This document shows, one piece after another, positions 3,539-57,877 of a stretch of DNA of 64,000 nt. Below the pieces are notes generated by a model. That model was given only the letters and a program-made list of their open reading frames with translations, had not been told where the DNA came from and searched no databases. The DNA is taken from contig OX597816.1 in assembly GCA_951406725.2 (NCBI GenBank), positions 111,166,001 to 111,230,000 of the forward strand, in the 5' to 3' direction. How positions within the stretch are numbered: the stretch's first letter is position 1; each line of letters opens with the position of its first letter. This DNA comes from Octopus vulgaris (taxonomy: Eukaryota). Both the position numbers and the translations under genes were made by a program.

Positions 3539-4058
3539 ATGAGGGTAGAAATTACTATTATTAATTAATATCAATTTAAACCAGTATCCTAGCATACTTT
3601 AAAAAGTCCGAAGTCTATGAATTATATTACACACACAAGAAGAATAGCCGACAAGGTGGATTCCTAATATGCTAGAAGAAAACGCCAAATCGCCTTACTA
3701 CGAAGAATATGTTCTCAAAAAGTTTCAGCAAACGCCAGAATGTAAGCAAGCAAGACAAATGAAAAGATACAAAATATGGCAATAAACTCCAAACCTCGAG
3801 ATTTCGCTATTAACGGTCACTAATGTGATCATCCGTGGCTCATCAGGAAACATAATTCACAGAACTAGACACAAAACGTCCTCTCGATAGAGAACATGTA
3901 TAAAATTCTGCCAATTATGGATCAGGGTCTCTCTTACAAATGTTTTGATTTTGACGAGCTGAAACTTGAAAGAACACTGCGGTTTATAGATTTCCGCAGC
4001 GAATTCACCGGTTAGAGAACACGGCTATTTAAAAGTCAAATAATGAGGGTAGAAATTA
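3539..4058 (-). mobile_element. Non-coding HHR-containing element (retrozyme or Penelope pLTR-derived) bounded by a 16-bp direct repeat
   Basis: atgagggtagaaatta at 3539-3554 and 4043-4058 (spacing 504); internal minus-strand CTGATGA...GAAA hammerhead core. Confidence 0.55.
3785..3855 (-). ncRNA. Putative type I hammerhead ribozyme
   Basis: Minus strand CTGATGA (3846-3840); stem II gc-..acgg-..tcac-atta-gtga-ccgt-..gc; GAAA (3805-3802); near-palindromic stem III AATCTCGAGGTT; stem I weak. Confidence 0.55.
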
Positions 4059-4092
4059 TTAATGGTGACTATTCCTCTTATATATGTTATAC

Positions 4093-4478
4093 AGGTGCAG
4101 GAGTGGGTTTGCGTTAAGTAGCTTGCTTACTAACCCCATGGTTCCGGGTTCAGTCCCACTGCGTGGTACCTTGGGCAAATGTCTTCTGCTATAGCTTCGG
4201 GCCCACCAAAGACTTGTGAGTGGATTTGATGGACAGAAATTGAAAGAAGCCCGTCCTATATATGTGTGTGTCTGTCTGTCTGTGAATGTTTCTGCGTCTG
4301 TGTTTGTCCCAACATCGCTTGACAACCGATGGTGGTGTGTTTAGGTCCCCGTAACTTAGCGGTTCGGCAAAAGAGAACTGATAGTTTAAGTACTAGGCAT
4401 TCTGGGGTCGATTTACATGTCTAAAGGCGGTGCTCCAACACGGCTGCAGTCAAATGACTGAAACAAGTAAAAAAAAAA
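4093..4478 (+). mobile_element. tRNA-derived SINE, near full length
   Basis: tRNA-like head with B-box-like ggttcagtccc, body accttgggcaaatgtcttctgctatag, internal (TG)-rich tract, 3' end gactgaaacaagtaaaaa; partial copies at 37530-37620(-), 38328-38480(+), 19700-19860(-), 41640-41800(-). Confidence 0.8.
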
Positions 4479-4499
4479 GATACTCCCAATGAATTTGAT

Positions 4500-6233
4500 G
4501 TGCCTATGGGTAGTTCGGATAGTGCGCAGATAGCCGATTTGGTCGGAATATATATTCTCTACGAATTGTCCGACCAATTCCCGGAGATCGCGGGCGGCCT
4601 GTATCGTGACGATTGTCTGTTTTACCTGCAAAACACCACGAACAGAATAGTGCAGAAAACTAAGAGCAGGTTAGCTAGGTTTTTTAATAGAATGGGCATG
4701 AGTATAGTTTTTGATAATGAACTCACCAAGGCCAATTTCCTAGACGTTACACTTAACCTTAATAGCGACTCATACTGCCCTTACCATAAGCCTTCCACTA
4801 ATTTGAAGTATGTCAGTGTCTTCTCAAATCATGCCAAAACCGTAACAGACAATTTGGTTAAAAACATCTCTCTAAGATTGTCTGGCTTGTCCGCCAGTGC
4901 CGATATTTTTATGCAGAAAGCGGAATTTTATAACGCCGCACTATCCAAGGCCGGTTATAGGCAGAAGGTAATTTATATTGATCCGGCCCTTCCGATGCCA
5001 TCATTCGGTCATCAGGATAGGGCCGTATATAATAACATTAACATTTTAAGTAAGGACGGGAGCGCGGTGGATGCCGGGGTAGTCGCTCCCGCATTTAATT
5101 TAGCGAACAAGGATAATTATCGGTCCGGGAGGTCTTACACTAACCCAAGACCCGTCATTCATCCGAGAATCACCCACCCGAATGCGAGAGCTGGCGTCCC
5201 GATCCATCACACTGATAGGAATAAGCATATATGGTTTGTAATCCCCTTTGGTAAGCAGATTAGAACTAACCTCCCCCTCATGTTTAGACAAGCCATTGCC
5301 AATAACTTCCCCAGAAATTCCAAATATTACTCCACGGTTAACTCGCATAAAGTTAGGATAGCTTTCTCCAACACTAAAAACCTCGCCCAGATAATCGCCT
5401 CCCATAATAATAGGCTACTTACTAAGACCCTATCACCTTTTTCCGGAGGCACAGCCTCTTCCGCTCCCGGTTTAATGCTCAGTAGGAATAATTATAGTAG
5501 TAATAATGATATGAGAGCCAGTACAGTGACACATAATCTCAGCTCCAGCCAGGGAGTACCCACTAGGGGTATAGTTATAAATAGGGGTGTTGTGGTTGAC
5601 GGTAACAATGGGAGTAGGGTAGAGAGCCCCAATAGCATCCCCAGCATCATTTCCCGCAATAGCAGCACCACGGGCAGTAGCAATGACAGCACTTTGATAG
5701 ATAGTGGAGAATCAGGGGTTATTCCTATAGTTAATAGTGACGTAGTGGAAAATAGAGTAGTAAGCGGCTGCAGGTCTCGGAACGAATATAGTGACAGGAA
5801 CGCAGTTCTAATTTCAGAAACTAATCCTAGCAGAATTAGATTCACGTCGGCGAACTCCAAGATCAAAAACGCCGTCTACCAATGCAAGGTTTACACGGAC
5901 TCAGATGTCTTCACTTATGTAGGGGCCTCATCCTCAAGATTGTCTTTGCGTGTCTCCAACCATTACGCAACTTTTCGGGACATGAACAAGCGCCAGACCA
6001 CGGGACTCAGTAAGCTAATATGGCGACTGAAGGATACGAACCTAAGCTACAGGCTGGAATGGTCAATTTTGTCGGTGGCCCTCCCATTTGATAGGGGCAG
6101 AAGGCAGTGCAACCTTTGTGTCTCCGAACTCTTCCATATTTTGTTTGCCAGAGGCCGGATGGTAAACGGGCTTTTACAGTCGGCTTTTCGATGCCCCCAT
6201 TGGCGGCGTTACACTTATCTGGCTTTTAAATAG
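4500..6233 (+). pseudogene. 5'-truncated duplicate of the PLE ORF (C-terminal 577 aa)
   Basis: Translation matches the last 577 aa of ORF 7170-9857; lacks the N-terminal RT motifs (DKT, FDI). Confidence 0.9.
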
Positions 6234-6818
6234 CGTTTATAAATAATACCGGCACCCATAGCCCTTGGTAACAAATTCTGAAATAGCCTTTAAGATATCT
6301 ACGATTAACCACTGCAAGGGGAATTACTCCTGTAAGACAAACGGGGCTTGGTTTTTTCACAGCGGGGGGTTTCCTTGACAAGGCAGGCTTAGATGAGAAC
6401 ACACACACACATAAAACATGATATATATTTTTTTTCTGCCACCCAACGGTCATCACGGCAGTAGCCACTGACAGCCGAACGATCAAACGCACACACGTAC
6501 ACAAAAAATGTTTTCTACCCCTACGCCAACACACACGTATATAGAACAGTATACACACACACACGTCTCTAAGTAGATTTTTTCTCGCCCCTTATAAAAC
6601 ATCCAATATTCCTTAAATAGTCAGAACTTTATTCTCGGTCACAAAGAACATCTACGCCCCCTCACCCACATGATTGACCGATGCCTGACCCGTTGAATTC
6701 TTCAGCCACCGGTTCTCAACATACACTGATAAACAGTTTCGCCATGGGCTCTTAGGAGCATAGTTCGATTTGTTTTTGCTCCGCCTCTGTTCTGTTTTTG
6801 TTTTTCCAACGGGTTTCC

Positions 6819-6912
6819 TATTTTCTTCCTGAAGAGAAAGACACAATATGGTCCCATTATTCCATCGGATTTTGGTAATTTGTGCCTTTCGAAACACGTG
6901 TAGAATGAAATA
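6819..6912 (+). ncRNA. Type I hammerhead ribozyme (PLE unit 1)
   Basis: Stem I tattttcttc / gaatgaaata; core CTGAAGA 6829-6835; stem II gaaagacacaa / ttgtgcctttc (10 of 11 pairs); GAAA 6891-6894; palindromic stem III ACACGTGT; GUA triplet, predicted cleavage after 6902. Confidence 0.8.
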
Positions 6913-7169
6913 AAACGATTTCTGTTCAATCTGCGTTCAGCTCCATTTCTTCAATTCACCAATAATGTTCTAATTTCAATTATCCGCACCAACGCACGGT
7001 TGCAACACCATATGGTTGTACCTCCAACCGTGCTGTTTTACTGCTGTGATTTTTGCTACTAAGGTATCGGTTAAACTTTTGATTAATCTACTACAAGATT
7101 ATTCATCTTTCTATTTCACATAATACATACCGCTTCGTCAAGAAACTGCTACTTTAACCGATACCAATA

Positions 7170-9857
7170 ATGGAGTTGTTCGAGATTGATGCGTCCCTTA
7201 AGGATATTCCTATACCACCAAAGGATGCCTTCCTTAAGGAGTTGGTTTGTAAAACCAACGCATTCATAAACCGGATAAGATGGCTCATTTTCTTCCACGA
7301 GAACGAAGATCTAAAATCGAACCGGACAACAGCATCGTCCGAATACGGCCGGCTTTTTAAAACATTGGATACGCCGCCACCTAACCCAAGACTGAAGAAG
7401 TTTGAGGACGACTTGTGGGACATAGTTAGAAAGATTAAGTTCAGGAAGTCACCCAGGAGAAATGCCCACCTCAGATACCTAGATAAAATTACCAAGGACA
7501 TTAATAGAACGGACGGAGTCCTGGTCCAGTCCGACAAGACCAGGAACACATACAAGATGCCCATTAAGCAGTACCTAGATTTACTCGGTAAAGAGATCAA
7601 GAAAAATTATAGAAAAACCAATTGGAGTACCCTGAGGAAGGTAAACTTGGAAATTAAGGAAATAATATTTAAACACCGAATTCAAATGAGAACTCAGCCG
7701 CTTAGCCCTAAGCAACCCGGATTTATAGTGAAGGACCATAAACCGAACTTCCACACCAACCCAGCGCTAAGACTCATATGCCCTGCTAGATCTGATATCG
7801 GGATAATCAGTAAGTACATTTTAGATAAATATATCCCTAGTTTAGTAAACAAGCTGAAGCTCAGCCTCTGGGCCAACTCCTCGCAGGTAGTGAAGTGGTT
7901 CTCTTCCATCCCCAATAAGAACCGTACTAGGTTCATTCAGTTTGATATCGCCAGCTTCTACCCCTCGATTAACCCTAGTGTGCTAAATAAGGCCCTCTGG
8001 CATGCTCACAACAAGGCTGGCCTCACCAGAGAAGAGATAGATATCATTTTAGTTGCCAGGAAATCGTTTATTAAGTTTGATAATAAGTTGTGGATCCGTA
8101 AAGATACTCCCAATGAATTTGATGTGCCTATGGGTAGTTCGGATAGTGCGCAGATAGCCGATTTGGTCGGAATATATATTCTCTACGAATTGTCCGACCA
8201 ATTCCCGGAGATCGCGGGCGGCCTGTATCGTGACGATTGTCTGTTTTACCTGCAAAACACCACGAACAGAATAGTGCAGAAAACTAAGAGCAGGTTAGCT
8301 AGGTTTTTTAATAGAATGGGCATGAGTATAGTTTTTGATAATGAACTCACCAAGGCCAATTTCCTAGACGTTACACTTAACCTTAATAGCGACTCATACT
8401 GCCCTTACCATAAGCCTTCCACTAATTTGAAGTATGTCAGTGTCTTCTCAAATCATGCCAAAACCGTAACAGACAATTTGGTTAAAAACATCTCTCTAAG
8501 ATTGTCTGGCTTGTCCGCCAGTGCCGATATTTTTATGCAGAAAGCGGAATTTTATAACGCCGCACTATCCAAGGCCGGTTATAGGCAGAAGGTAATTTAT
8601 ATTGATCCGGCCCTTCCGATGCCATCATTCGGTCATCAGGATAGGGCCGTATATAATAACATTAACATTTTAAGTAAGGACGGGAGCGCGGTGGATGCCG
8701 GGGTAGTCGCTCCCGCATTTAATTTAGCGAACAAGGATAATTATCGGTCCGGGAGGTCTTACACTAACCCAAGACCCGTCATTCATCCGAGAATCACCCA
8801 CCCGAATGCGAGAGCTGGCGTCCCGATCCATCACACTGATAGGAATAAGCATATATGGTTTGTAATCCCCTTTGGTAAGCAGATTAGAACTAACCTCCCC
8901 CTCATGTTTAGACAAGCCATTGCCAATAACTTCCCCAGAAATTCCAAATATTACTCCACGGTTAACTCGCATAAAGTTAGGATAGCTTTCTCCAACACTA
9001 AAAACCTCGCCCAGATAATCGCCTCCCATAATAATAGGCTACTTACTAAGACCCTATCACCTTTTTCCGGAGGCACAGCCTCTTCCGCTCCCGGTTTAAT
9101 GCTCAGTAGGAATAATTATAGTAGTAATAATGATATGAGAGCCAGTACAGTGACACATAATCTCAGCTCCAGCCAGGGAGTACCCACTAGGGGTATAGTT
9201 ATAAATAGGGGTGTTGTGGTTGACGGTAACAATGGGAGTAGGGTAGAGAGCCCCAATAGCATCCCCAGCATCATTTCCCGCAATAGCAGCACCACGGGCA
9301 GTAGCAATGACAGCACTTTGATAGATAGTGGAGAATCAGGGGTTATTCCTATAGTTAATAGTGACGTAGTGGAAAATAGAGTAGTAAGCGGCTGCAGGTC
9401 TCGGAACGAATATAGTGACAGGAACGCAGTTCTAATTTCAGAAACTAATCCTAGCAGAATTAGATTCACGTCGGCGAACTCCAAGATCAAAAACGCCGTC
9501 TACCAATGCAAGGTTTACACGGACTCAGATGTCTTCACTTATGTAGGGGCCTCATCCTCAAGATTGTCTTTGCGTGTCTCCAACCATTACGCAACTTTTC
9601 GGGACATGAACAAGCGCCAGACCACGGGACTCAGTAAGCTAATATGGCGACTGAAGGATACGAACCTAAGCTACAGGCTGGAATGGTCAATTTTGTCGGT
9701 GGCCCTCCCATTTGATAGGGGCAGAAGGCAGTGCAACCTTTGTGTCTCCGAACTCTTCCATATTTTGTTTGCCAGAGGCCGGATGGTAAACGGGCTTTTA
9801 CAGTCGGCTTTTCGATGCCCCCATTGGCGGCGTTACACTTATCTGGCTTTTAAATAG
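7170..9857 (+). CDS. Penelope-like reverse transcriptase + C-terminal GIY-YIG endonuclease, 895 aa, intact
   Basis: Motifs SLKDIPIP, SDKT, KDHKPNF, FIQFDIASFYPSI, MGSSD, GLYRDD, FLDVTLNL; endonuclease AVYQC...YVG...R..NH...CNLCVSE...N...CPH. This signature set matches the Naiad branch of PLEs. Confidence 0.93.
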   Translation: MELFEIDASLKDIPIPPKDAFLKELVCKTNAFINRIRWLIFFHENEDLKSNRTTASSEYGRLFKTLDTPPPNPRLKKFEDDLWDIVRKIKFRKSPRRNAHLRYLDKITKDINRTDGVLVQSDKTRNTYKMPIKQYLDLLGKEIKKNYRKTNWSTLRKVNLEIKEIIFKHRIQMRTQPLSPKQPGFIVKDHKPNFHTNPALRLICPARSDIGIISKYILDKYIPSLVNKLKLSLWANSSQVVKWFSSIPNKNRTRFIQFDIASFYPSINPSVLNKALWHAHNKAGLTREEIDIILVARKSFIKFDNKLWIRKDTPNEFDVPMGSSDSAQIADLVGIYILYELSDQFPEIAGGLYRDDCLFYLQNTTNRIVQKTKSRLARFFNRMGMSIVFDNELTKANFLDVTLNLNSDSYCPYHKPSTNLKYVSVFSNHAKTVTDNLVKNISLRLSGLSASADIFMQKAEFYNAALSKAGYRQKVIYIDPALPMPSFGHQDRAVYNNINILSKDGSAVDAGVVAPAFNLANKDNYRSGRSYTNPRPVIHPRITHPNARAGVPIHHTDRNKHIWFVIPFGKQIRTNLPLMFRQAIANNFPRNSKYYSTVNSHKVRIAFSNTKNLAQIIASHNNRLLTKTLSPFSGGTASSAPGLMLSRNNYSSNNDMRASTVTHNLSSSQGVPTRGIVINRGVVVDGNNGSRVESPNSIPSIISRNSSTTGSSNDSTLIDSGESGVIPIVNSDVVENRVVSGCRSRNEYSDRNAVLISETNPSRIRFTSANSKIKNAVYQCKVYTDSDVFTYVGASSSRLSLRVSNHYATFRDMNKRQTTGLSKLIWRLKDTNLSYRLEWSILSVALPFDRGRRQCNLCVSELFHILFARGRMVNGLLQSAFRCPHWRRYTYLAFK

Positions 9858-10443
9858 CGTTTATAAATAATACCGGCACCCATAGCCCTTGGTAACAAAT
9901 TCTGAAATAGCCTTTAAGATATCTACGATTAACCACTGCAAGGGGAATTACTCCTGTAAGACAAACGGGGCTTGGTTTTTTCACAGCGGGGGGTTTCCTT
10001 GACAAGGCAGGCTTAGATGAGAACACACACACACATAAAACATGATATATATTTTTTTTTCTGCCACCCAACGGTCATCACGGCAGTAGCCACTGACAGC
10101 CGAACGATCAAACGCACACACGTACACAAAAAATGTTTTCTACCCCTACGCCAACACACACGTATATAGAACAGTATACACACACACACGTCTCTAAGTA
10201 GATTTTTTCTCGCCCCTTATAAAACATCCAATATTCCTTAAATAGTCAGAACTTTATTCTCGGTCACAAAGAACATCTACGCCCCCTCACCCACATGATT
10301 GACCGATGCCTGACCCGTTGAATTCTTCAGCCACCGGTTCTCAACATACACTGATAAACAGTTTCGCCATGGGCTCTTAGGAGCATAGTTCGATTTGTTT
10401 TTGCTCCGCCTCTGTTCTGTTTTTGTTTTTCCAACGGGTTTCC

Positions 10444-10537
10444 TATTTTCTTCCTGAAGAGAAAGACACAATATGGTCCCATTATTCCATCGGATTTTGG
10501 TAATTTGTGCCTTTCGAAACACGTGTAGAATGAAATA
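10444..10537 (+). ncRNA. Type I hammerhead ribozyme (PLE unit 2)
   Basis: Same sequence as 6819-6912; CTGAAGA 10454-10460; predicted cleavage after 10527. Confidence 0.8.
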
Positions 10538-10746
10538 AAACGATTTCTGTTCAATCTGCGTTCAGCTCCATTTCTTCAATTCACCAATAATGTTCTAATT
10601 TCAATTATCCGCACCAACGCACGGTTGCAACACCATATGGTTGTACCTCCAACCGTGCTGTTTTACTGCTGTGATTTTTGCTACTAAGGTATCGGTTAAA
10701 CTTTTGATTAATCTACTACAAGATTATTCATCTTTCTATTTCACAT

Positions 10747-10791
<45 letters not shown>

Positions 10792-22947: not shown

Positions 22948-24198
22948 GGGGCTGGTATATGCGTGTGTGTGTAAGCATGCATGTATATTAATCTGTGCAG
23001 CCAACACTGTATCTACTATCAACACCAAAACCAATACAACCGCTACCATTACCAAAGTACCAACTCAACAATGCAAGGATCATGTAAAAAGATAAGCAAC
23101 CCATTTTTAAAAATCCATCACACGAGATATGGTTATCTAATATACTGAAAGTCGACTGAAATGCTTTCAATCTTAATTCAATGACAATTGACCTAAATAG
23201 CAATGAGAATTAAGTTGAAGCTAAACCGTAAAACTTTACAATTGGTTTGAAAAATGTGACAAGCACCATTCCCAACGATACCCACATTAGCACCAAAAAC
23301 AAAGCCAATGCAATCAATACCACCGCTATTACCAGCCCACCAACTTTTAAGTGACCAAAAAGCAACAATAACAGTATCAGCACGATAGTATTGTTTGCAT
23401 CTACATATTTTGTAAGTCAAGATAACATATATGGATCGATGAGTGTGCGTGCGTGTGTATACGTGTGTGTGTGTAGAGTGCGGAGTTTTTATGGCTCAAA
23501 TATCCTGGATACAAGGAATGAAGGGCCTACGACCCTGGTAGCCCTTCAACTAACTTTAAGGATACAATACTTCTTTCCGTTCACTCCTTCACCTTTCCAA
23601 GTTTTCATGGCTGTTTTTATATCTATTAGGACATAAAACACTTTTTGCGCACACAAACAATTCTTTCCTGGATAATTTGTTTGACTTAATATTTGTCGTA
23701 GTCACTGTTGACCGTTGCAGCTATTGGCTTTATTTACAATTCCAGATAACTGAAATCAAGCCATGAATGGTAACTGAAGAACCGTAAAATTATTACACCG
23801 GATATTAAGCTTGATGTCTGAAAAGGGCTTGATACAGAAGAAAAGAATAATTCCCGTGACCAAACATGAATGTTTGTAACATGTACAATAAGAACAAGAC
23901 GTGACAACATCGAAAAATTAAGCCAATGCCAAAGTAGTTACTTCTAGCTAGTAAACACTTGAAAGGTCCAAGGGAGGAATGAATTATCACAACAAAAATT
24001 GACAAACGATACTGTAGTGATACAAAAACTGCTATCAATAATCTTGAGTAGCTGAAAAATATAACTGATAGAGAGTGCTACTTCACCGACCAAGTATATC
24101 ACGTTGCCATATTTGCGCTTTGATAGAACATTGGTGCATGTCCATTTGTTTCTTGAAAACAAATATCAGTACAGTGATTGAAAGCATTTTAAAATAGT

Positions 24199-25837
24199 CT
24201 ATACGCTGCAACTGACAAACAGCTGGAAACACTATTAAAGACAGTTCATGGATTTACCAAAGAAATAGATATGAAATTTGGATTAGAAAAATGCGCCAAA
24301 GTAACCATGAAAAGAGGAAAACTAGTTAAGAGTAACAACATTACACTAGATAAAACCAATGAAATAAAAGAATTAGACCAAAGCCAAACTTACAAATACT
24401 TAGGAATCCATGAACTAGATAAGACACAACACACACAAATGAAAGAGAAAATAAAAAAAGAATATTATAGACGAGTTAGATCAATACTAAAAACAGAGCT
24501 CAATGCTAAAAACAAGATAATAGGTATCAACACTTTAGCTGTCCCAGTTATAAGTTACAGCTACAATATCCTTAACTGGACACGAAATGAACTGTCCAAA
24601 ATAGATAGGAAAACAAGAAAAATACTGACAGGATCTAGGATGCATCACCCAAAATCTGACATAGAAAGACTATATATACAACGTATAGAAGGTGGTAGAG
24701 GCCTTATACAGCTGGAAAACTACTATAAAATAACCACCATAGGACTGCAAAAATACCTACTCCAGAAGGAAGGAAAACTGATCCAGATAGCAGCAAAACA
24801 CGAGCAAATCAAAAAACTGTCCTCAGTATTTAAGGAAGCTGACAAATACAAACAAGAAATCATACCACCTAATAAACACAAAGAAGAAGAAGAAGATGAT
24901 GAAGAAACAACAAAAGCTATAAAACAAATGAAATCCAAACTAAAAATAGAACAGCAACGAGCCATGATAAAACGATGGCAAGAAAAACCCCTTCATGGTA
25001 AATACTGCACTAAACTAAACGCAAAAGAAATAGACAAAGAAAAATCCCAGCAATGGTTGAGAAGCTCAGGACTCAAAGCAGAAACAGAGGGATTTTTAAT
25101 TGCAGCACAAGACCAAAGCCTCCCCACCAGAAATTACCAAAAACATGTAATGAAAAGAAATATTACAAGTAACTGCAGAATATGTGTAGATGGACAAGAA
25201 ACAATAAATCATATTATCTCTAGCTGCCCAGTCCTGGCTAAGAAGGAATATATTCACAGACATGACAGAGTTGGAATCTACATACATTGGAAGCTATGCC
25301 AACATTATGGAATAACAACAGAAAAAAGATGGTATAGGCACACACCAGAAAAGGTCACAGAAAACGAGAAAGCAACCATACTCTGGGATATGCCGATACA
25401 TACAGATAGAGAAATTAAGGCCAACAGACCAGATATAGTTGTCAGAGATCATGAAGAAAAAAAATGCTTTCTAATTGATGTATCAATACCGGCAGATGAC
25501 AACGTGTCTCTAAAAGAAATGGAGAAACTCTCAAAATACAAAGACCTGGAAATAGAGGTAACTAGAATGTGGAACCTGAAAACAGAAACAATTCCTATCA
25601 TAGTAGGTGCATTAGGCATGATAAAAAAATATTCAGACAAATACATAACAAAAACACCAGGACTTACAAACACATATAACATACAGAAAATTGCACCACT
25701 AGGCACTGCACACATCCTACGTAGAACACTTTCCATACAATAACCATCAGAGCATCACAACAAATCACAGCACATACCCAAGGCACACAGAGCTGCGCTC
25801 GGTAGTGAAGTGAAAGCACGCTATAAAAATAAAACTA

Positions 25838-25840
<3 letters not shown>
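24199..25840 (+). mobile_element. R4/Dong-clade non-LTR retrotransposon, 5'-truncated copy 1
   Basis: Begins just after the RT YMDD motif (compare copy 3); short 3' UTR ends aataaaactactg followed by (AAT)n. Confidence 0.9.
24271..25743 (+). CDS. C-terminal RT/thumb + CCHC zinc knuckle + restriction-like endonuclease (truncated LINE ORF, 490 aa)
   Basis: KFGLEKC, YKYLG, GGRGL, CRIC..ETINHIISSC, RHD, RPDIVV...IDVSIP...KYKDL. Confidence 0.85.
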   Translation: MKFGLEKCAKVTMKRGKLVKSNNITLDKTNEIKELDQSQTYKYLGIHELDKTQHTQMKEKIKKEYYRRVRSILKTELNAKNKIIGINTLAVPVISYSYNILNWTRNELSKIDRKTRKILTGSRMHHPKSDIERLYIQRIEGGRGLIQLENYYKITTIGLQKYLLQKEGKLIQIAAKHEQIKKLSSVFKEADKYKQEIIPPNKHKEEEEDDEETTKAIKQMKSKLKIEQQRAMIKRWQEKPLHGKYCTKLNAKEIDKEKSQQWLRSSGLKAETEGFLIAAQDQSLPTRNYQKHVMKRNITSNCRICVDGQETINHIISSCPVLAKKEYIHRHDRVGIYIHWKLCQHYGITTEKRWYRHTPEKVTENEKATILWDMPIHTDREIKANRPDIVVRDHEEKKCFLIDVSIPADDNVSLKEMEKLSKYKDLEIEVTRMWNLKTETIPIIVGALGMIKKYSDKYITKTPGLTNTYNIQKIAPLGTAHILRRTLSIQ

Positions 25841-25896
<56 letters not shown>

Positions 25897-25907
25897 TGAT
25901 GATGATG

Positions 25908-25986
<79 letters not shown>

Positions 25987-29754: not shown

Positions 29755-32692
29755 CAGTATTTCCCAAACTTTTCGCGCCAAATTGCAATATCGCCCACCT
29801 ATCGGCCACAAAATGCTCCATCGCCCTCAATACAAAATCCCTTAGGACCAACGCCCTGTATCATTTGACACACACACCCTATATCGTAAACTCGCTACCC
29901 TGTTAGTGGCGTTTGGACTAAATATGCAGTTGTTTACAAATCCTGTATTGTGTGTTTAGGTTTTTCATTAGTGTAAATAAAATTCTAACGGTAATTCTAT
30001 ATTATGCAGAAAGATTATCTTCTGGAAACTTGCGCTTTCTTTTACACTCATTTTCCTTTTCCCCAAATCAACCATTGATCAGAAATACCGATGCAAAAAT
30101 AATTAACAATTATAAAGAAAAATAATAAATCTTTTTTAATGAGAACCATGTGACAGGTGGGATGCTGCTAGTGCAGATACATTCGGTTTCAAACTTATCA
30201 ACTTTAGCCGCAAGTCAGCAGTCCAATTCTTTTATGGGAAAATAAAATTGCAACATGGTTAAAACCAGAGTCAACCAGGTATGAGGTAGAGAAGGCAAGC
30301 AAAAGTAATTTCAGATGTTTCCACAGATTGGGGTAGGAATTTAATAAACTCTGATGTTACCACAAACCTTCTTTACCATTACAGCGATATCGCATTGTGG
30401 TGTCATTGTCATTTTGTAATTCTATCAATTCCTCCCGAACATCATCCTCGCAATCGACTGCATCGACCTCAAACGGATTGCTATACCACTTTGGACTATT
30501 CAGCGTAATAACGTCTTGAAATCGCTCCACCACGTTATCGTGTAAATAGTTGCGATATGTGGTTAAATCCTCATCAATCAATTCAAATTTCAAAGAATCA
30601 AGTAGTGGAAATTGATGGAATTGACGTTTTGAAATGTAGTCTTAAACAAAACCAATTTCGAAATGAAGGTATTGATAATGATTTACAATCAACGGGGGTT
30701 TTCTGTTTCTTTGCAATAACTTATTCAAATAATTTAATTTCGTGAATATATCACAAAGAAAAAAGACATCGCACCTTGCAGCCATCAATGAAGCGGATAG
30801 CGGAGTATTTTCAAAGAAAAAATTATATAAAACAGTTCAACAAAGCGTAAAACAGTTTCTTTTGACTGCCACCGCACTACATTATAAGTGTTTAGAATGG
30901 TCCTCAACATTTCTCAGACAGAGCTGATGGAAAATTCAATATGTTCAAAGTCTTGATAGCTAACTGTAGCACATCATTCAATCTACTGTTCATATTGGTA
31001 GCCACTAAATGTTGCCTATGTGCCAAGTAATGAACAGTTAGTATCTGGTAGAAACTTTCACGCTTTGGGAGAGATGAAACACCTCTGTATCTTCCTATCA
31101 TCGAAGGGGCTCCCTCAGACGACTGGCAAGAAAATTACTGAGTTGGATATTATGTTCAAAAAGAAAAGACTTGAGAGTGCGAAAAATAGTTGCACCTTTT
31201 GAATCTAGCGGCAATTTCTCTGTGAACAGCATTTCCTCACAAGGTTGAAGGACATCGCTGAAAAACCGAACATATACCATCATCAAACATTGATTGTTGA
31301 CAACAGCTGATTCATCCACTTCTATAAAAAATTCAGAACGCTGGAGAATATTAATGAGCTGATGTTTGACATCGTTGGCTATTTCATCGATGTGTCTAAA
31401 AATTGTGCTATTACTAAGTGGCATCTTCTTCATAATGTTATCGCGTTTTTCGTGCATAACGGTTGGCAAAACCTCTTCGATAACTGGGCGAAGTAATGTT
31501 TCTCCAATTGTGTAAGACTTCCCAGACTTAGCACCAAGCAATACAATGTTGTACGATGCAATCAACCCATCATTCTTCTGTTTACTAATTTCATGGGTTA
31601 GCGTGTTTGTATTTGCTTTCTGAAAGAGAAGCTTAGTTGCAAAAAGTATGACAACAGCTTGTCCTTGTTAGAATGCTTCGCATCAAAGTGATACTTCAAG
31701 CCTGAAGGTTTCGTTGCTTCGGTGGTCAATGTTTGATGGCAAATAAGGCATTTTGGTAACTAAACGTTCTGAGAAAAGGGAATAAATCCAAACGATAAAA
31801 AATTGCTACTGTACTGTCAAGAAATTTTCTTGACTGGAGGCATCAGTAAAGTGAAAATGTGAGAACGAGTTTCTATTGACGGCATCAGAAAGGCAGTATG
31901 GTATTCCCAAAGAAAAGAAGAAGCCAATAGAGTAAATTCAAATGACACGTCTTTACTGGAGCAAATACGAATCTGGTTCATTTGGCTGCCAGTATTTCAA
32001 ACATTAAAGTTTATCGAAAATATTAGTATCTAGCATATTAATGTAACTTTCCAAGATAAATTGCTGGAGTTATTCAACTTTTTTTGGGAAAAGGTTTTTA
32101 AAAAGTTATAGAGATTTAAAATTTGATCATTTTCATCCAATCAAGAAACACGATTTCAAAGCTGTCATTTTGTGTGTGACTGCACATTTTGTCAACATCC
32201 TGAAAATAGTATTTTTGTTTTGATATGAAACCACAGAATTGCGCATGACATATAACCCCTCATAATTTTTTTTATTTTTCGATGTTTTCAGAAAAGTTTG
32301 GCGAATTTGAATTCTATTCGTGTGACTTCATACGATTATGCAAAACAAAAAAAAATTGTAATGGAGTGTGATTTAACGCCTAGGCCTATTTGGCTGCTAA
32401 TTTTCGTACGCATGACATCCATCCAATGACTGTGAGAAAAACTTTCGATCGATAGACAAGTCCGCATTTTTGATAGGAAGGGACGTCACGTACGATTAAC
32501 CAGATCGATAAAAGTGCATCCTTATTCTGAGCATGACTAGATATAAGTAAATGCAAACTTAATCTCTAAAATTTCATTGTCACCCACAAATGTTCATATC
32601 GCTCACCCAAATCTCAAATCGCCCACCATTTTCAAGAAATTCGCCCATCTCCCACATGTAAGTTGAAATCGCCCACTTTGAGAAGCTACTAA
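29755..32692 (-). mobile_element. hAT (Buster/Charlie-like) DNA transposon relic, probably with a nested insertion at ~31970-32580
   Basis: ASY...KSYTIGETLLRP, MPLSNSTIFRHIDEIA, IEVDES, HYLAHRQHL, NPF...EELIELQND; TIR-like cagtatttcccaaactt at 29755. The right boundary (ttgagaagctact near 32690) is tentative. Confidence 0.8.
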
Positions 32693-32875: not shown

Positions 32876-32877
<2 letters not shown>

Positions 32878-33605
32878 GACCAAAGCCTCCCCACCAGAAA
32901 TTACCAAAAACATGTAATGAAAAGAAATATAAAAAGTAACTACAGAATATGTGGAGATGGACAAGAAACAATAAATCATATTATCTCTAGCTGCCCAGTC
33001 CTGGCTAAGAAGGAATATATTCACAGACATGACAGAGTTGAAAGCAACATACATTGGAAGCTATGCCAACATTATGGAATAACAACAGAAAAAAGATGGT
33101 ATAGGCACACACCGGAAAAGGTCACAGAAAACGAGAAAGCAACCATACTCTGGGATATGCCGATACACACAGATAGAGAAATTAAGGCCAACAGACCAGA
33201 TATAGTTGTCAGAGATCATGAAGAAAAAATGCTTTCTAATTGATGTATCAATACCGGCAGATGACAACGTGTCTCTAAAAGAAATGGAGAAACTCTCAAA
33301 ATACAAATACCTGGAAATAGAGGTAACCAGAATGTGGAATCTAAAAACAGAAACAATTCCTATCATAGTAGGTGCATTAGGCATGATAAAAAAATATTCA
33401 GACAAATACGTAACAAAAACACCAGGACTTACAAACACATATAACATACAGAAAATTGCACTACTAGGCAATGCACACATCCTACGCAGAACACTTTCCA
33501 TACAATAACCATCAGAGCATCACAACAAATCATAGCACATACCCAAGGCACACAGAGCTGCGCTCGGTAGTGAAGTGAAAACACGTTATAAAAATAAAAC
33601 TACTG
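32876..33605 (+). mobile_element. R4/Dong-clade LINE, 5'-truncated copy 2 (frameshifted), embedded in (AAT)n
   Basis: Near-identical to 25110-25840; (AAT)n on both sides, followed by (AAG)n. Confidence 0.92.
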
Positions 33606-33606
33606 A

Positions 33607-33665
<59 letters not shown>

Positions 33666-33888
33666 AAGAAGAAGAAGAAGAAGAAGAAGAAGAAGAAGAA
33701 GAAGAAGAAGAAGAAGAAGAAGAAGAAGAAGAAGAAAAAGAAGAAATGAACAAGCAACATGGACGTGTGACAGTGAGCTGCAGGGAAGATTAGATCAAAT
33801 TTGAAACCATCACGAACCAGGAATTAAGAATCCACATGAACAATGAAAGGAAACTATGTTATAATGTATGCCATCTCAAGAAACTGGA

Positions 33889-43680: not shown

Positions 43681-43719
43681 CAGAATAGCTCACTTAAACT
43701 TTTAAGAGGAGAGGGTCTT

Positions 43720-45135
43720 CTTTGAGTGTTTTCAGGCAAACCCATCCAGGAATGGTATATCGAGAAAAATACAAGCGGTCAAACAAAAGTATTCTATCAA
43801 ATTTTCTCCATAGATTATTGGGATTTGTGTTAGAAAGTAACACAATGAAGTTTAGACAAAGATATTACCACCAGACGAAGAGTTGCGCCATGGGTACCCC
43901 CATGGTAGTTAATTTCGCTATTGTCTTCATAACGAAATTCGAGACGCAGTTACTGAAAACATTCAAATCCCTTCATGGTCATGAACCAATACTCTGGTTA
44001 CGGTTCATTGACGACATATTTTCTGTCTGGGGAGGATCACAGGATAGTTTAATGGACTTCTTGCATTTCTGTACCTGTTATGCTAGAAATTATGGCTTTA
44101 AGTCCAACATAAAATTTACGACTAATTTTTCAATAACTACCGTTCAATGTTTCGACACAAAATCAATTTTTCTGGAGGCAGAATAGTGACAGAGTTATTT
44201 TGCAAGCCCACGTCATCCCACATTTATCTGCACCGCCGCTCTGAACATCCACATCATCTTTTTCGGTCAAATCCGAAATCCCAATTTTTGAGGACAAAAT
44301 GGATTTGTACTGACATAGGGGATTACTGGAAACATGCAAATCCTTTTGTATATCATTATGTCAAACGCGGTTACAGTGAATCAAGATTAAAGGAAATAGC
44401 AAATGAAATAGCTAAGATTAGCAAAGCTGTCAAACCTACACGCATAATTTTAGCACACACACAATACAATAAATGACAGAATTCCTTTAGTGATAAGCTG
44501 ACATTTCAAAAGTGTTGCATGAAAGTTACCAGCCTGTGGCGAAAACAATATCCTCGCTTCAACAGAAATTCCCTCAGCCGCCTATTGTAGCCTTTAGATG
44601 GAATAAGAATATAAGAGAATTGATGACCTCTATAGCTGACTCCAAGAAATCGAACATTGGAGTATCTAAATGCTGTACCTTAAAGAACAGCCGCAAGAGA
44701 GCTAAGCCCTGTTCATTCTGCAACAACATGAGTGAAGTGAATTCCATCAGAAATCAAAACAGAAATGTCATGATTTATACAGAAGGTGGAACATGTAAAG
44801 ATTCCCATTTGGTGTACGCTGCATAATGCACGAAACATAACTTAATTTATATTGGTTGTACAACAGAACAATTAAGCAAAATGCTTAATGGGTACTGATT
44901 CGATGTCAGATACAATAACAGTAGTTCGACAGAACTTGCTGAGCATTTCGTTTCAATCGGCTGCAGTTTTGAAGAAGACTTGAAAGTGCATGTTCTCAGA
45001 AAATATTCTGAATCTGCTCCACTTCTTAGAATGTATGAGGAGAAATATATTTGCAGGTTATTCACATCACGCCCTGGAGAAATGAATAAGATTACAGGAG
45101 AATATCATCAAATTTATACAAAACTGTTTGATTAA
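43720..45135 (+). pseudogene. Decayed Penelope-like element (Neptune-like): RT, Cys linker, GIY-YIG
   Basis: YHQTKSCAMGTP, WLRFIDDIF, LFCKPT...YLH..SEHP, PPIVAFR, CSFC...TC..SHLVYAA*CTKHNLIYIG; stops and frameshifts. Confidence 0.88.
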
Positions 45136-54670: not shown

Positions 54671-54883
54671 TACAGTTCTCTATTGAAGAAATAAGGAATT
54701 ATGTATATTATTTACATTATTTACATTTGACGGATATTTGTCCTCATCTTGTTTGTTGTTAACACAACGTTTCGGCTGATATACCCTCCAGCCTTCATCA
54801 GGCGTCTTGGAGAAATTTTGAACATGGCTTCTCATTCCTAAGGTATTTTTCGATGTTGTTGTTGTTGTTGTTATTATTATTAC

Positions 54884-54944
<61 letters not shown>
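54671..54944 (-). mobile_element. HHR-tailed SINE-like element, left arm of the fold-back dimer
   Basis: 54708-54860 is the reverse complement of ~57720-57877 with 2 mismatches in the unique part. Confidence 0.85.
54761..54806 (-). ncRNA. Minimal type I hammerhead ribozyme
   Basis: Reverse complement of 57779-57824. Confidence 0.7.
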
Positions 54945-54947
<3 letters not shown>

Positions 54948-57410
54948 TAGTTTTATTTTTATAGCGTGCTTTCACTTCACTACCGAGCGCAGCTCTGTGT
55001 GCCTTGGGTATGTGCTGTGATTTGTTGTGATGCTCTCATGGTTATTGTATGGAAAGTGTTCTGCGAAGGATGTGTGCAGTGCCTAGTAGTGCAATTTTCT
55101 GTATGTTATATGTGTTTGTAAGTCCTGGTGTTTTTGTTACGTATTTGTCTGAATATTTTTTTATCATGCCTAATGCACCTACTATGATAGGAATTGTTTC
55201 TGTTTTCAGGTTCCACATTCTAGTTATCTCTATTTCCAGGTCTTTGTATTTTGAGAGTTTCTCCATTTCTTTTAGAGACACGTTGTCATCTGCCGGTATT
55301 GATACATCAATTAGAAAGCATTTTTTTCTTCATGATCTCTGACAACTATATCTGGTCTGTTGGCCTTAATTTCTCTATCTGTGTGTATCGGCATATCCCA
55401 GAGTATGGTTGCTTTCTCGTTTTCTGTGACCTTTTCTGGTGTGTGCCTATACCATCTTTTTTCTGTTGTTATTCCATAATGTTGGCATAGCTTCCAATGT
55501 ATGTAGGTTCCAACTCTGTCATGTCTGTGAATATATTCCTTCTTAGCCAGGACTGGGCAGCTAGGGATAATATGATTTATTGTTTCTTGTCCATCTACAC
55601 ATATTCTGCAGTTACTTGTAATATTTCTTTTCATTACATGTTTTTGGTAATTTCTGGTGGGGAGGCTTTGGTCTTGTGCTGCAATTAAAAATCCCTCTGT
55701 TTCTGCTTTGAGTCCTGAGCTTCTCAACCATTGCTGGGATTTTTCTTTGTCTATTTCTTTTGCGTTTAGTTTAGTGCAGTATTTACCATGAAGGGCTTTT
55801 CTTGCCATCGTTTTATCATGGCTCGTTGCTGTTCTATTTTTAGTTTGGATTTCATTTGTTTTATAGCTTTTGTTGTTTCTTCATCATCTTCTTCTTCTTC
55901 TTTGTGTTTATTAGGTGGTATGATTTCTTGTTTGTATTTGTCAGCTTCCTTAAATACTGAGAACAGTTTTTTGTTTTGCTCGTGTTTTTCTGCTATCTGG
56001 ATCAGTTTTCCTTCCTTCTGAAGTAGGTATTTTTGCAGTCCTATGGTGGTTATTTTATAGTAGTTTTCCAGCTGTATAAGGGCTCTACCACCTTCTATAC
56101 GTTGTATATATAGTCTTTCTATGTCAGATTTTGGGTGATGCATCCTAGATCCTGTCAGTATTTTTCTTGTTTTCCTATCTATTTTGGACAGTTCATTTCG
56201 TGTCCAGTTAAGGATATTGTAGCTGTAACTTATAACTGGGACAGCTAAAGTGTTGATACCTATTATCTTGTTTTTAGCATTGAGCTCTGTTTTTAGTATT
56301 GATCTAACTCGTCTATAATATTCTTTTTTATTTTCTCTTTCATTTGTGTGTGTTGTGTCTTATCTAGTTCATGGATTCCTAAGTATTTGTAAGTTTGGCT
56401 TTGGTCTAATTCTTTTATTTCATTGGTTTTATCTAGTGTGATGTTGTTACTCTTAACTAGTTTTCCTCTTTTCATGGTTACTTTGACGCATTTTTCTAAT
56501 CCAAATTTCATATCTATTTCTTTGGTAAATCCATGAACTGTCTTTAATAGTGTTTTCAGCTGTTTGTCATTTGCAGCGTATAGTTTTAGGTCATCCATAT
56601 ATAAAAGGTGGCTGATCGTTTTGCCGTAACATTTATACCCGCATCCAGTTCTATTTAGCATATCAGATAGAGGTGACAGTGCCAAGCAGAAAAGGAGTGG
56701 AGAGAGCGTGTCTCCCTGGAATATTCCTCTTCTAATGGGGATGGCTTTGGTTTTCATGAGTCCCTCTTTTGTTTGGAGGTGTAGGGCTGTTTGCCATTTA
56801 TTCATAGAGTGCTCTATGAATTTTATGATTGTTGGTGCTACTTTGTTAATGGCTAGTGTTTCGAGGATCCATGTGTGGGGGATGCTATCAAACGCCTTTT
56901 TGTAGTCAATCCAGGCCATACTGAGGCCTTTCTTCTTTCTGTGGCTGTCTTCAGTTACGACTTTATTAATCATTAGTTGATCTTTACAGCCATATGAGCC
57001 CTTGCGGCATCCTTTCTGCTCTTCTGGGAACAGTTTGTTTTCGTCCAGGTGCTTGTTCAGCCTTTGCGATATCACTGCAGTAAATGCCTTGAACATAGTA
57101 GGGAGGCAGGTTATTGGTCTGTAGTTTTCTGGTTTTGTTGTTTCATTTGATTTGGGAATTAAGATGGTTTTTTCCACTTCGTGAGCCATTCAGGCATTGT
57201 CTCTGGCTCTGCTAGTATGCTGTTAAAGTTTTCAGCCAGCTTTTTGTACATTCCTGTTAGATATTTCAACCAGAAGTTGGGGATCTTGTCATGCCCAGGT
57301 GCCTTCCAGTTGCATAGTTTTTGCAGTGCCTGGGTGACCTCTTCAGTTGTTATGGGGGTCCAAAGTTGTTCAGATGCCGAGTTTGTTATTTTCATACTCC
57401 TTTTTTTTGG
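54945..57410 (-). mobile_element. R4/Dong-clade LINE copy 3 (RT + CCHC + RLE, several frameshifts)
   Basis: KAPGHDKI, YRPITCL, WIDYKKAFDS, GIFQGDTLSPLLF, HLLYMDDLK, CRIC, RPDIVV; 3' end aataaaactactg then (AAT)n. Confidence 0.93.
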
Positions 57411-57411
57411 C

Positions 57412-57563
57412 TGTTCGTTCGCCGACCATATTTCTCTCCAGTGTTCGTTCGCCGACCATATTTCTCTCCAGTGTTCGTTCGCCGACCATATTTCTCTCCA
57501 GTGTTCGTTCGCCGACCATAATTCTCTCCAGTTATCTTTCGCCGACCATATTTCTCTCCAGTT
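57412..57563. repeat. 30-bp tandem repeat x5 at the LINE 5' junction
   Basis: Unit gttcgttcgccgaccatatttctctccagt; the minus strand reads WREIWSANEH. Confidence 0.92.
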
Positions 57564-57582
57564 ATTATTATTATCGAACTCG

Positions 57583-57626
57583 GAGTTCGATTCCTGCCAG
57601 TGACCTGAATAATAATAATAATAATG

Positions 57627-57714
<88 letters not shown>

Positions 57715-57877
57715 CAACAGCAACAACAACATCGAAAAATACCTTAGGAATGAGAAACCATGTTCAAAATTTCTCCAAGACGCCTGATGAAGGCTGGAGG
57801 GTATATCAGCCGAAACGTTGTGTTAACAACAAACAAGATGAGGACAAATATCTGTCAAATGTAAATAATGTAAATAA
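57583..57877 (+). mobile_element. HHR-tailed SINE-like element, right arm (B-box remnant + (AAT)n + unique tail)
   Basis: gagttcgattcc (Pol III B-box-like), gtgacctg(AAT)n, then catcgaaaaataccttagg...HHR...aaatgtaaataa. Confidence 0.85.
57779..57824 (+). ncRNA. Minimal type I hammerhead ribozyme
   Basis: Stem I gacgc/gtgtt; CTGATGA 57784-57790; stem II GGCTG-10nt-CAGCC; GAAA 57812-57815; palindromic AACGTT stem III; GUU site, predicted cut after 57819. Confidence 0.7.

Follow-up and report, generated by a model that had tools for sequence, protein, structure and literature searches.

Why does a Penelope-like element (PLE) lie in the octopus genome as more than one unit of itself, and does the hammerhead ribozyme (HHR) that it carries have any part in this? 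The question is raised by an insertion of 6271 nt (4476 to 10746, plus strand) in a 64,000-nt stretch of Octopus vulgaris DNA (contig OX597816.1), referred to here as the window. The insertion corresponds to 1.73 units in head-to-tail order. Comparison of the window with itself divides it into a 5'-truncated upstream copy of 2646 nt (0.73 unit; 4476 to 7121), which begins in the middle of the reverse transcriptase (RT) region, and a full unit of 3625 nt (7122 to 10746). Positions 4476 to 6427 are identical to 8100 to 10051 and positions 6428 to 7121 to 10053 to 10746, with no mismatch and one additional T in a homopolymer of the downstream copy; no further copy of the unit was found in the window by BLAST. 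A preliminary description of the locus had given the same unit and the same single difference, and its further figures, a 3' end 219 nt beyond the second predicted ribozyme cut and a 267-nt leader before the ATG, were obtained again upon recalculation. Its central proposal, a young and intact PLE present as a partial tandem and made as a more-than-unit complementary DNA (cDNA), is supported. We are confident that the locus is a real partial tandem of a PLE of the Hydra clade, and by whatever route, one unit was probably re-read recently. Tentatively, we favour a single target-primed insertion: the RT would have read an RNA of about one unit with redundant ends a second time, by way of a homology-guided template switch, and cleavage by the ribozyme was likely not needed.

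The junctions are those of an insertion lacking a target-site duplication (TSD), the longest word common to both flanks being 3 nt. At the left junction, 3-4 nt of A-rich microhomology are shared with the tail of a high-copy host repeat (4098 to 4475, plus strand), which was delimited by contig depth and is presumably SINE-like (short interspersed element). Contigs of four public runs (X1, X5, X7 and X10, out of 24 listed) were compared with window positions 3900 to 8099, and in all four the summed depth of this repeat is thousands-fold above that of the open reading frame (ORF). At the right junction lies a (TA)n microsatellite (10747 to 10790, plus strand), the likely target, which starts with TACATA. 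Since the same letters stand at unit positions 7124 to 7129 after a 2-nt gap, the true 3' end may lie anywhere from 10746 to 10752. The 64-kb window contains no N, and the left junction was bridged by no public contig among the matches listed (8 pieces per run).

The state of the family in these contigs bears on the age of the tandem. At 7120, all four runs show an 8- to 36-fold fall in summed contig depth, which marks a 3' end shared by the copies; after 7129 three contigs in X5 run into (TA)n. Upstream of this end, the depth of single contigs halves about every 0.9-1.1 kb in a log-linear decay (r -0.96 and -0.97; 7 contigs in X7, 6 in X5), which supports random 5' truncation. The decay predicts that 12-18% of full-length copies extend 2646 nt further on an endless template; together with the variably truncated upstream copy carried by about 30% of Drosophila virilis Penelope copies according to PMC2377424, this contradicts the earlier view that the upstream repeat is unusually long. 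The tandem geometry is ordinary for Penelope-like elements. The joint from 8099 to 4476 was found in all four runs. Depth over the 5' part of the ORF exceeds that of the unique flank 23-53 times, which roughly hints at full-length copies numbering in the tens. Among 40 of the 123 variant rows, 15 of 22 ORF variants are synonymous (22-28% expected, P<=1.3e-4), an excess that fits purifying selection on a functional protein and, as far as sequence can tell, a recently amplifying autonomous family; that the element is still active is plausible. The depth profiles of X1 and X10, whose RNA status is only guessed, are similar to those of the DNA runs, and runs X20 to X24 contain almost none of the element's words.

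Against this background the window element stands out by its alleles. Those at 6042 and 6813, present in both copies, are absent from all four runs and that at 5297 is nearly so, while those at 5203 and 5837 are, among the four, common only to X10; in the unique part, position 7719 encodes G184 in the window and R in all four runs as well as in the two closest full-length homologs. A mutation acquired after insertion should be confined to one copy, and majority alleles would be expected of an assembly loop; one unit was therefore likely re-read after the private alleles had arisen. The shared private alleles fit a circular template, a homology-guided switch or a DNA-level event alike. Some further contigs and loci show related structures. 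One diverged contig of X10 (record 13, 7085 to 7272, 8 differences) joins unrelated sequence at 7085 and is possibly a copy whose upstream repeat spans only about 37 nt, and other X10 contigs belong to a subfamily about 7% diverged. The related Hydra-type loci L026, L044 and L066 comprise, as assembled, 2.09, 2.06 and 1.33 units, their copies differing by 2, 10 and 3 mismatches, and may be real tandems or assembly loops.

Each copy contains a type I hammerhead. The first (6812 to 6918, plus strand), identified by a descriptor and by folding, is predicted to be cut after 6902, and the second (10437 to 10543, plus strand), identified by identity to the first and by the descriptor, after 10527; the claim that the two predicted cut sites are one unit (3625 nt) apart thus holds. 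The parts of the ribozyme are the core CUGAAGA at 6829, a helix II of 55 nt, GAAA at 6891, the GUA cut at 6902 and a bulged helix I, and helix III is self-complementary (ACACGUGU). The descriptor matched none of 2000 shuffles of the unit. An Rfam scan (E<=5) missed the hammerhead and returned only microRNA and snoRNA models on microsatellites. By predicted folding, the monomer prefers an inactive fold by 2.8 kcal/mol and the ribozyme is predicted to be active as a dimer: the double hammerhead reaches -44.5 kcal/mol, compared with -44.6 for the free fold and -31.4 for two active monomers. The hammerhead core with sequence downstream of it was found in 60 of the 77 related metagenome loci, which were taken from the best 80 of 463. 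The preliminary description had stated that the cDNA must cross the cleavage junction twice. This follows given a cleaved template, but it is not special to the locus: the 24 scorable published Hydra consensuses all end 30-355 nt beyond the cut (median 79; PMC8557442, File S2), one family being left out whose sole hammerhead match is at the 5' end. Therefore any copy with two pseudo-long terminal repeats (pLTRs) spans the cut site twice, and the crossing is general for pLTR pairs bearing an HHR. Depth across the cut changes by a ratio of 0.75-2.2 in the contigs of the four runs, without a consistent step at 6903, and a linear cleaved RNA was rejected as the main template; as RT starts just 219 nt from its 5' end, such an RNA would be useful only once circular. 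As a separate observation, summed contig depth drops 1.5- to 3.3-fold from bin 6700 to bin 6560 in all four runs; in X1 and X7 no other step upstream of the 3' end is bigger. It hints at a short non-autonomous derivative of about 420 nt (6700 to 7121) containing the hammerhead.

The ORF (7170 to 9857 from ATG to stop, plus strand) encodes 895 amino acids (aa) and, as claimed before, is intact without internal stops. Neither RT nor endonuclease was detected in it by a Pfam scan, and a sequence-profile search of the PDB with the ORF gave nothing under E 0.1; for residues 620 to 895 a word-based search was null and an exhaustive search gave matches. Motifs and fold searches assign an RT region (aa 1 to 480; 7170 to 8609, plus strand) with RWL, DKT, PMGS and YRDD (at residue 353), for which the top five structures are all telomerase TERT, followed by a long disordered linker and, at the C-terminus, a GIY-YIG endonuclease (EN; 9495 to 9857, plus strand). 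The latter matches the fold of I-TevI (Z 9.4, root mean square deviation 2.4, 89 residues aligned) and in alignment retains Y778, Y791, G793, R802, H806, E861, N874, CxxC and CxH; C780 is the sole Cys between its two tyrosine motifs. A telomerase-like RT, GIY-YIG in the same ORF and a pLTR-forming partial tandem place the element among EN-bearing (EN+) PLEs.

The earlier label as a Naiad had to be given up. Length (3.4-4.4 kb), (TA)n preference and partial tandems are common to both, but none of the features that set Naiads apart fits: Naiads are described with an N-terminal EN, DKA, CxC, IFD and no canonical HHR (PMC8557442), whereas here the endonuclease is C-terminal (aa ~770 to 895), the motif is DKT, CxC is found nowhere in the ORF and a hammerhead is present. 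The order of RT and C-terminal GIY-YIG together with the DKT, RW and CxxC/CxH motifs therefore assigns the element to the Hydra clade, with which it shares DKT (122 to 124), the RW motif (RWL at 37 to 39, differing in the third residue from RWK), the lack of GxKF and CCHH, and CNLC (855 to 858) and CPH (883 to 885) beside E861 and N874. Like Hydra-1_Obim and Hydra-1_Ajap, for example, it has a canonical HHR with self-complementary helix III, a 3' end past the cut and an insertion at (TA)n. It differs in its unit length (3.6 kb versus <3 kb), the 55-nt helix II and two insertions in the protein (87 aa versus a median of 21, and 157 versus a median of 39), and it is a separate family from Hydra-1_Obim (2507 bp). 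In a quick tree of the RT, the element is nested among Hydra-type homologs bearing a zinc finger in the linker, published reference proteins being compared by eye; its sister there (100 SH-aLRT, the sister filling 36% of the columns) is P0259 (XP_036366068.1) of Octopus sinensis, which is 62% identical over 519 aa; among relatives with a name, partial gene models of that species are the closest. The cephalopod Hydra-type PLE proteins P0010, P0109, P0110 and P0259 were found to be auto-named as GATA zinc finger, dyrk1 kinase or DDB_G-like proteins.

The most distinctive trait of the protein lies in its S/N-rich disordered linker (aa 632 to 764; 9063 to 9494, plus strand), which in alignment lacks the CxC-CP-C finger; a CxCX5C-type linker finger is absent from the window in all three frames. 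Homologs in alignment A2 have Cys at three finger columns in 63 of 63 cases and at the fourth in 62, and the strict motif is present in 72 of 75 EN-bearing proteins (of 107 homolog matches). One finger Cys is retained in the window protein and lacking in P0259. Before the nuclease, aa 752 to 775 form a replacement segment which, with the finger-less linker, is shared by the O. sinensis proteins P0259, XP_029632940.1 (P0110) and XP_029649382.1 (P0109), uncharacterised, partial and misannotated gene models of sister families. Sorted by pattern, 150 homologs of the EN region comprise 4 with the replacement segment and no finger, 64 with the finger and 82 that are too short. We read the missing finger from these sequences as a derived loss in the octopus lineage, and therefore file the element as a Hydra variant rather than a typical member; Hydra-1_Obim retains the finger. 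Craig et al. tied this linker to (TA)n targeting (PMC8557442). Despite the loss, (TA)n adjoins the element at this locus and in the three X5 contigs, a small sample; the finger-less lineage appears to be amplified and shows purifying selection. Short 3' copies could owe their mobilisation to the protein of another family. No published account of a finger-less Hydra lineage was found in a literature search whose scope did not include Arkhipova 2006, Repbase reports, figure images and bioRxiv supplements.

A second conserved trait was found at the 3' ends. Within 200 nt past the hammerhead, a hairpin of the form GCUC, stem, 2-nt bulge, GAGC, ACU is present in 53 of 57 scorable loci compared with 4.9% of shuffles, with a small bias in favour, as the loci were scored with their best core and the controls with their first. 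It is present twice in 33 of the 57, at about +45 and +110. In the proximal hairpins (40 of 42, two too short being dropped) stem positions 1 to 3 are paired in 37, 33 and 30 cases versus 28, 23 and 17 in shuffles, and at each position none of 2000 shuffles reached the observed value; the 28 distal hairpins are weaker (28, 12 and 17 versus 26, 11 and 11; reached by 4, 930 and 6 of 2000). The inner stem covaries solely at the 2-nt bulge register. These 70 hairpins were chosen by position, with off-position ones and near-duplicates left out, kinship ignored and the outer stem required by the search; in a MAFFT alignment of 62 hairpins the 5' strand was misaligned. Exits into unrelated flank, visible for 17 of 25, lie 0-10 nt before the hairpin in 13 cases and 27 nt before it in one, three being without a hairpin. 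The pattern TA[CT]A...GCTC, written after viewing the window and a few loci, was present in 46 of 60 loci versus 8%. By eye, such a hairpin follows 2 nt after the start of the Hydra-1_Ajap consensus, one lies near the 3' end of both Hydra-2_Amil and Hydra-2_Ajap, Hydra-1_Crog opens with a compensated GCCC/GGGC version and Hydra-1_Obim has no canonical one at its ends.

In the window, TACATA is followed by a degenerate GCUC...GAGC-ACU hairpin (7132 to 7153; the whole 7124 to 7153, plus strand), whose homology is suggested by its position. A larger stem-loop (7063 to 7163, plus strand) with a 13-bp helix (7063-7075/7151-7163) is predicted to enclose the putative RT start (folding z -6.4; leader z -4.0) and is whole solely at the tandem junction. 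The TA-rich stretch could pair with a (TA)n primer. Taken together, it is possible, though doubtful as a whole, that the RT start in the Hydra clade is set by a conserved bulged hairpin downstream of the hammerhead, and that the (TA)n target is chosen in a telomerase-like manner by pairing of the TA-rich RNA before the hairpin with the nicked primer; the linker finger would then be dispensable for targeting, as the apparently amplifying finger-less octopus lineage would show. The idea that the finger binds the hairpin and that both were lost together was unsupported: of 66 scorable loci 59 have both, six have a finger and no hairpin match (some of these contigs being short) and one, apparently frameshifted, has the hairpin and a finger remnant only. 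A literature search, with Arkhipova 2006, Repbase and the PAc supplementary figures outside its scope, found no published account of a Hydra 3'-end hairpin, and the words GCTC, hairpin, stem-loop and microhomology do not occur in the main text of Craig et al. (PMC8557442).

The template switch that we favour builds on what the locus displays: an intact RT/GIY-YIG ORF and two identical hammerheads, with (TA)n at the 3' junction, microhomology at the 5' junction and no TSD. As the biochemistry of the Anolis Poseidon element PAc suggests, the endonuclease would nick AT-rich DNA and the RT would begin internally at 7121 to 7129, that is 219-227 nt past the cut site. By comparison with relatives, this start would be marked by the bulged hairpin and by the TA-rich stretch, maybe briefly paired with the (TA)n primer. 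At the 5' end of the RNA the cDNA would re-anneal to the repeated part of the pLTR and continue, with a random drop-off after 1.73 units. Cleavage by the hammerhead would take place only where a transcript with two copies folds as a double hammerhead; it would likely serve RNA processing and not be required. After Drosophila melanogaster had been transformed with Penelope flanked by pLTRs, most new copies had this tandem form, and in D. virilis the length of the Penelope transcript is about one unit (both PMC2377424); the same tandems are formed without an HHR by Naiad and most Chlamys elements (PMC8557442), and HHR-dead mutants of PAc insert normally in vitro, with no RNA-seq reads reported to end at the cut (PMC11167929). 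Several points weigh against this sequence of events. No feature of the locus tells the switch apart from a circle, this family and most relatives retain the HHR, and the double-hammerhead fold comes at no energetic cost. Circularisation via RtcB does occur in animal retrozymes with type I HHRs (PMC7229834). The PAc templates used in vitro were short, tandem formation lying outside that assay, and the PAc start site is not homologous to its target (PMC11167929), which speaks against primer pairing. Furthermore, the variant figures come from the 40 of 123 rows mentioned above and no run is shown to be RNA, summed contig depth is by the tool's own warning not a copy number, and the four runs, as far as known not from the window's individual, may miss rare alleles.

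Less probable, though to be taken seriously, is a circular template, as proposed for more-than-unit cDNA by Cervera and de la Pena in 2014 (PMC4209133): a double hammerhead would cut both sites, the 3625-nt RNA would be ligated (RtcB-type), and RT from 219 nt past the joint would circle it 1.73 times. The palindromic helix III, with its energetic preference for the dimer over two active monomers, and the identical copies with common private alleles speak for it, and circles are known from retrozymes (PMC7229834). A cleaved linear RNA would yield just 219 nt of cDNA, and the lack of a consistent depth step at the cut argues only against such a cut linear template. The tandems of HHR-less Naiad and Chlamys elements and the behaviour of the PAc mutants count against a circle, as do the weak cleavage of metazoan PLE HHRs in vitro (PMC4209133) and the predicted inactive fold of the monomer. 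It is unlikely that the RT simply copied a read-through RNA, left uncleaved, of a genomic master with roughly three units or more, a route proposed for PAc (PMC11167929). Two related contigs exceed two units (L026 and L044), though these are possibly assembly loops; the units of an inherited master should differ, yet the copies share derived alleles with no mismatch, and therefore read-through still needs a recent homogenising step. Tandems also arise de novo from donors with a pLTR only (PMC2377424).

An event at the DNA level after insertion would likewise homogenise the copies, be it unequal exchange, gene conversion or an in-register insertion that the element directs at its own pLTR, a region that the endonucleases of PAc and Penelope do cut (PMC11167929). 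It is improbable here, as the 5' truncation of the upstream copy and its microhomology are what an RT stop predicts, and such tandems are common across PLEs (PMC2377424). The least probable explanation is an assembly artefact, one additional turn through a collapsed repeat loop. Related short-read contigs often are such loops and the left junction is unbridged among the contig pieces listed, but a loop would be made up of the family's majority alleles, and the copies have alleles that none of the four runs shows; they also differ by the homopolymer T, in a 64-kb window free of N.

Compared with known systems, the tandem resembles D. virilis Penelope and Pen2_Av of Adineta vaga, in which an upstream copy truncated to a varying extent likewise precedes a full downstream one (PMC2377424, PMC3846280). 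Pen2_Av also shares the missing TSD and the 5' microhomology (PMC3846280), and N-rich linker inserts are known from A. vaga families. Both elements belong to other clades, and the window locus has no inverted copy. PAc is the one biochemically studied system that the literature search brought up; its RT begins at an internal site that lies in a stem-loop, some 90 nt downstream of the HHR cut (Frangieh et al. 2024, PMC11167929). An AT-rich target and two start sites are further likenesses; the PAc start lies inside the ORF and is reported as non-homologous to the target, whereas the window element ends in the leader at a TA-like stretch (PMC11167929). Animal non-LTR retrozymes share the type I HHR in tandem units but are short and non-coding, and circles were shown for them and for no autonomous PLE in the literature examined (PMC7229834).

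Elsewhere in the window, a PLE-type RT fragment of a different clade (43698 to 44186, plus strand; MGT..., RFIDD) gave a weak RVT_1 match (E 0.08). A minus-strand non-LTR retrotransposon with RT and restriction-like endonuclease (about 54856 to 57640, in (TAA)n), which from its motifs we take to be R4/Dong-like, is flanked by inverted 237-nt repeats (54708 to 54944 and 57641 to 57877, 98%). Each of these holds a minimal hammerhead core (57784, plus; 54801, minus), and they are likely the inverted 3' ends of another PLE that was later interrupted. More 5'-truncated copies of the same non-LTR element, 93-99% identical and ending in trinucleotide repeats, lie at 24193 to 25929 and 32876 to 33694. 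An ORF fragment on the minus strand (31098 to 31667) bears a putative resemblance to a hAT-type transposase.

Regeneration of the pLTR and the role of PLE hammerheads are stated open questions (PMC2377424, PMC8557442). The tandem and the idea of a circle are already known; new here are apparently the lost linker finger and the 3'-end hairpin, which seems undescribed. The locus leaves the questions on pLTR and hammerhead unanswered but is a clean test case, with an intact ORF and two identical ribozymes, and its private alleles tag the donor lineage of the element. The conserved hairpin is a concrete cis-element open to mutation, and with the finger-less lineage one can test whether the linker finger directs insertion into (TA)n, as has been proposed in print. 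If the hairpin and primer pairing act as outlined and the template is a hammerhead-made circle, this family would be ready for solving how PLEs regenerate their pLTR.

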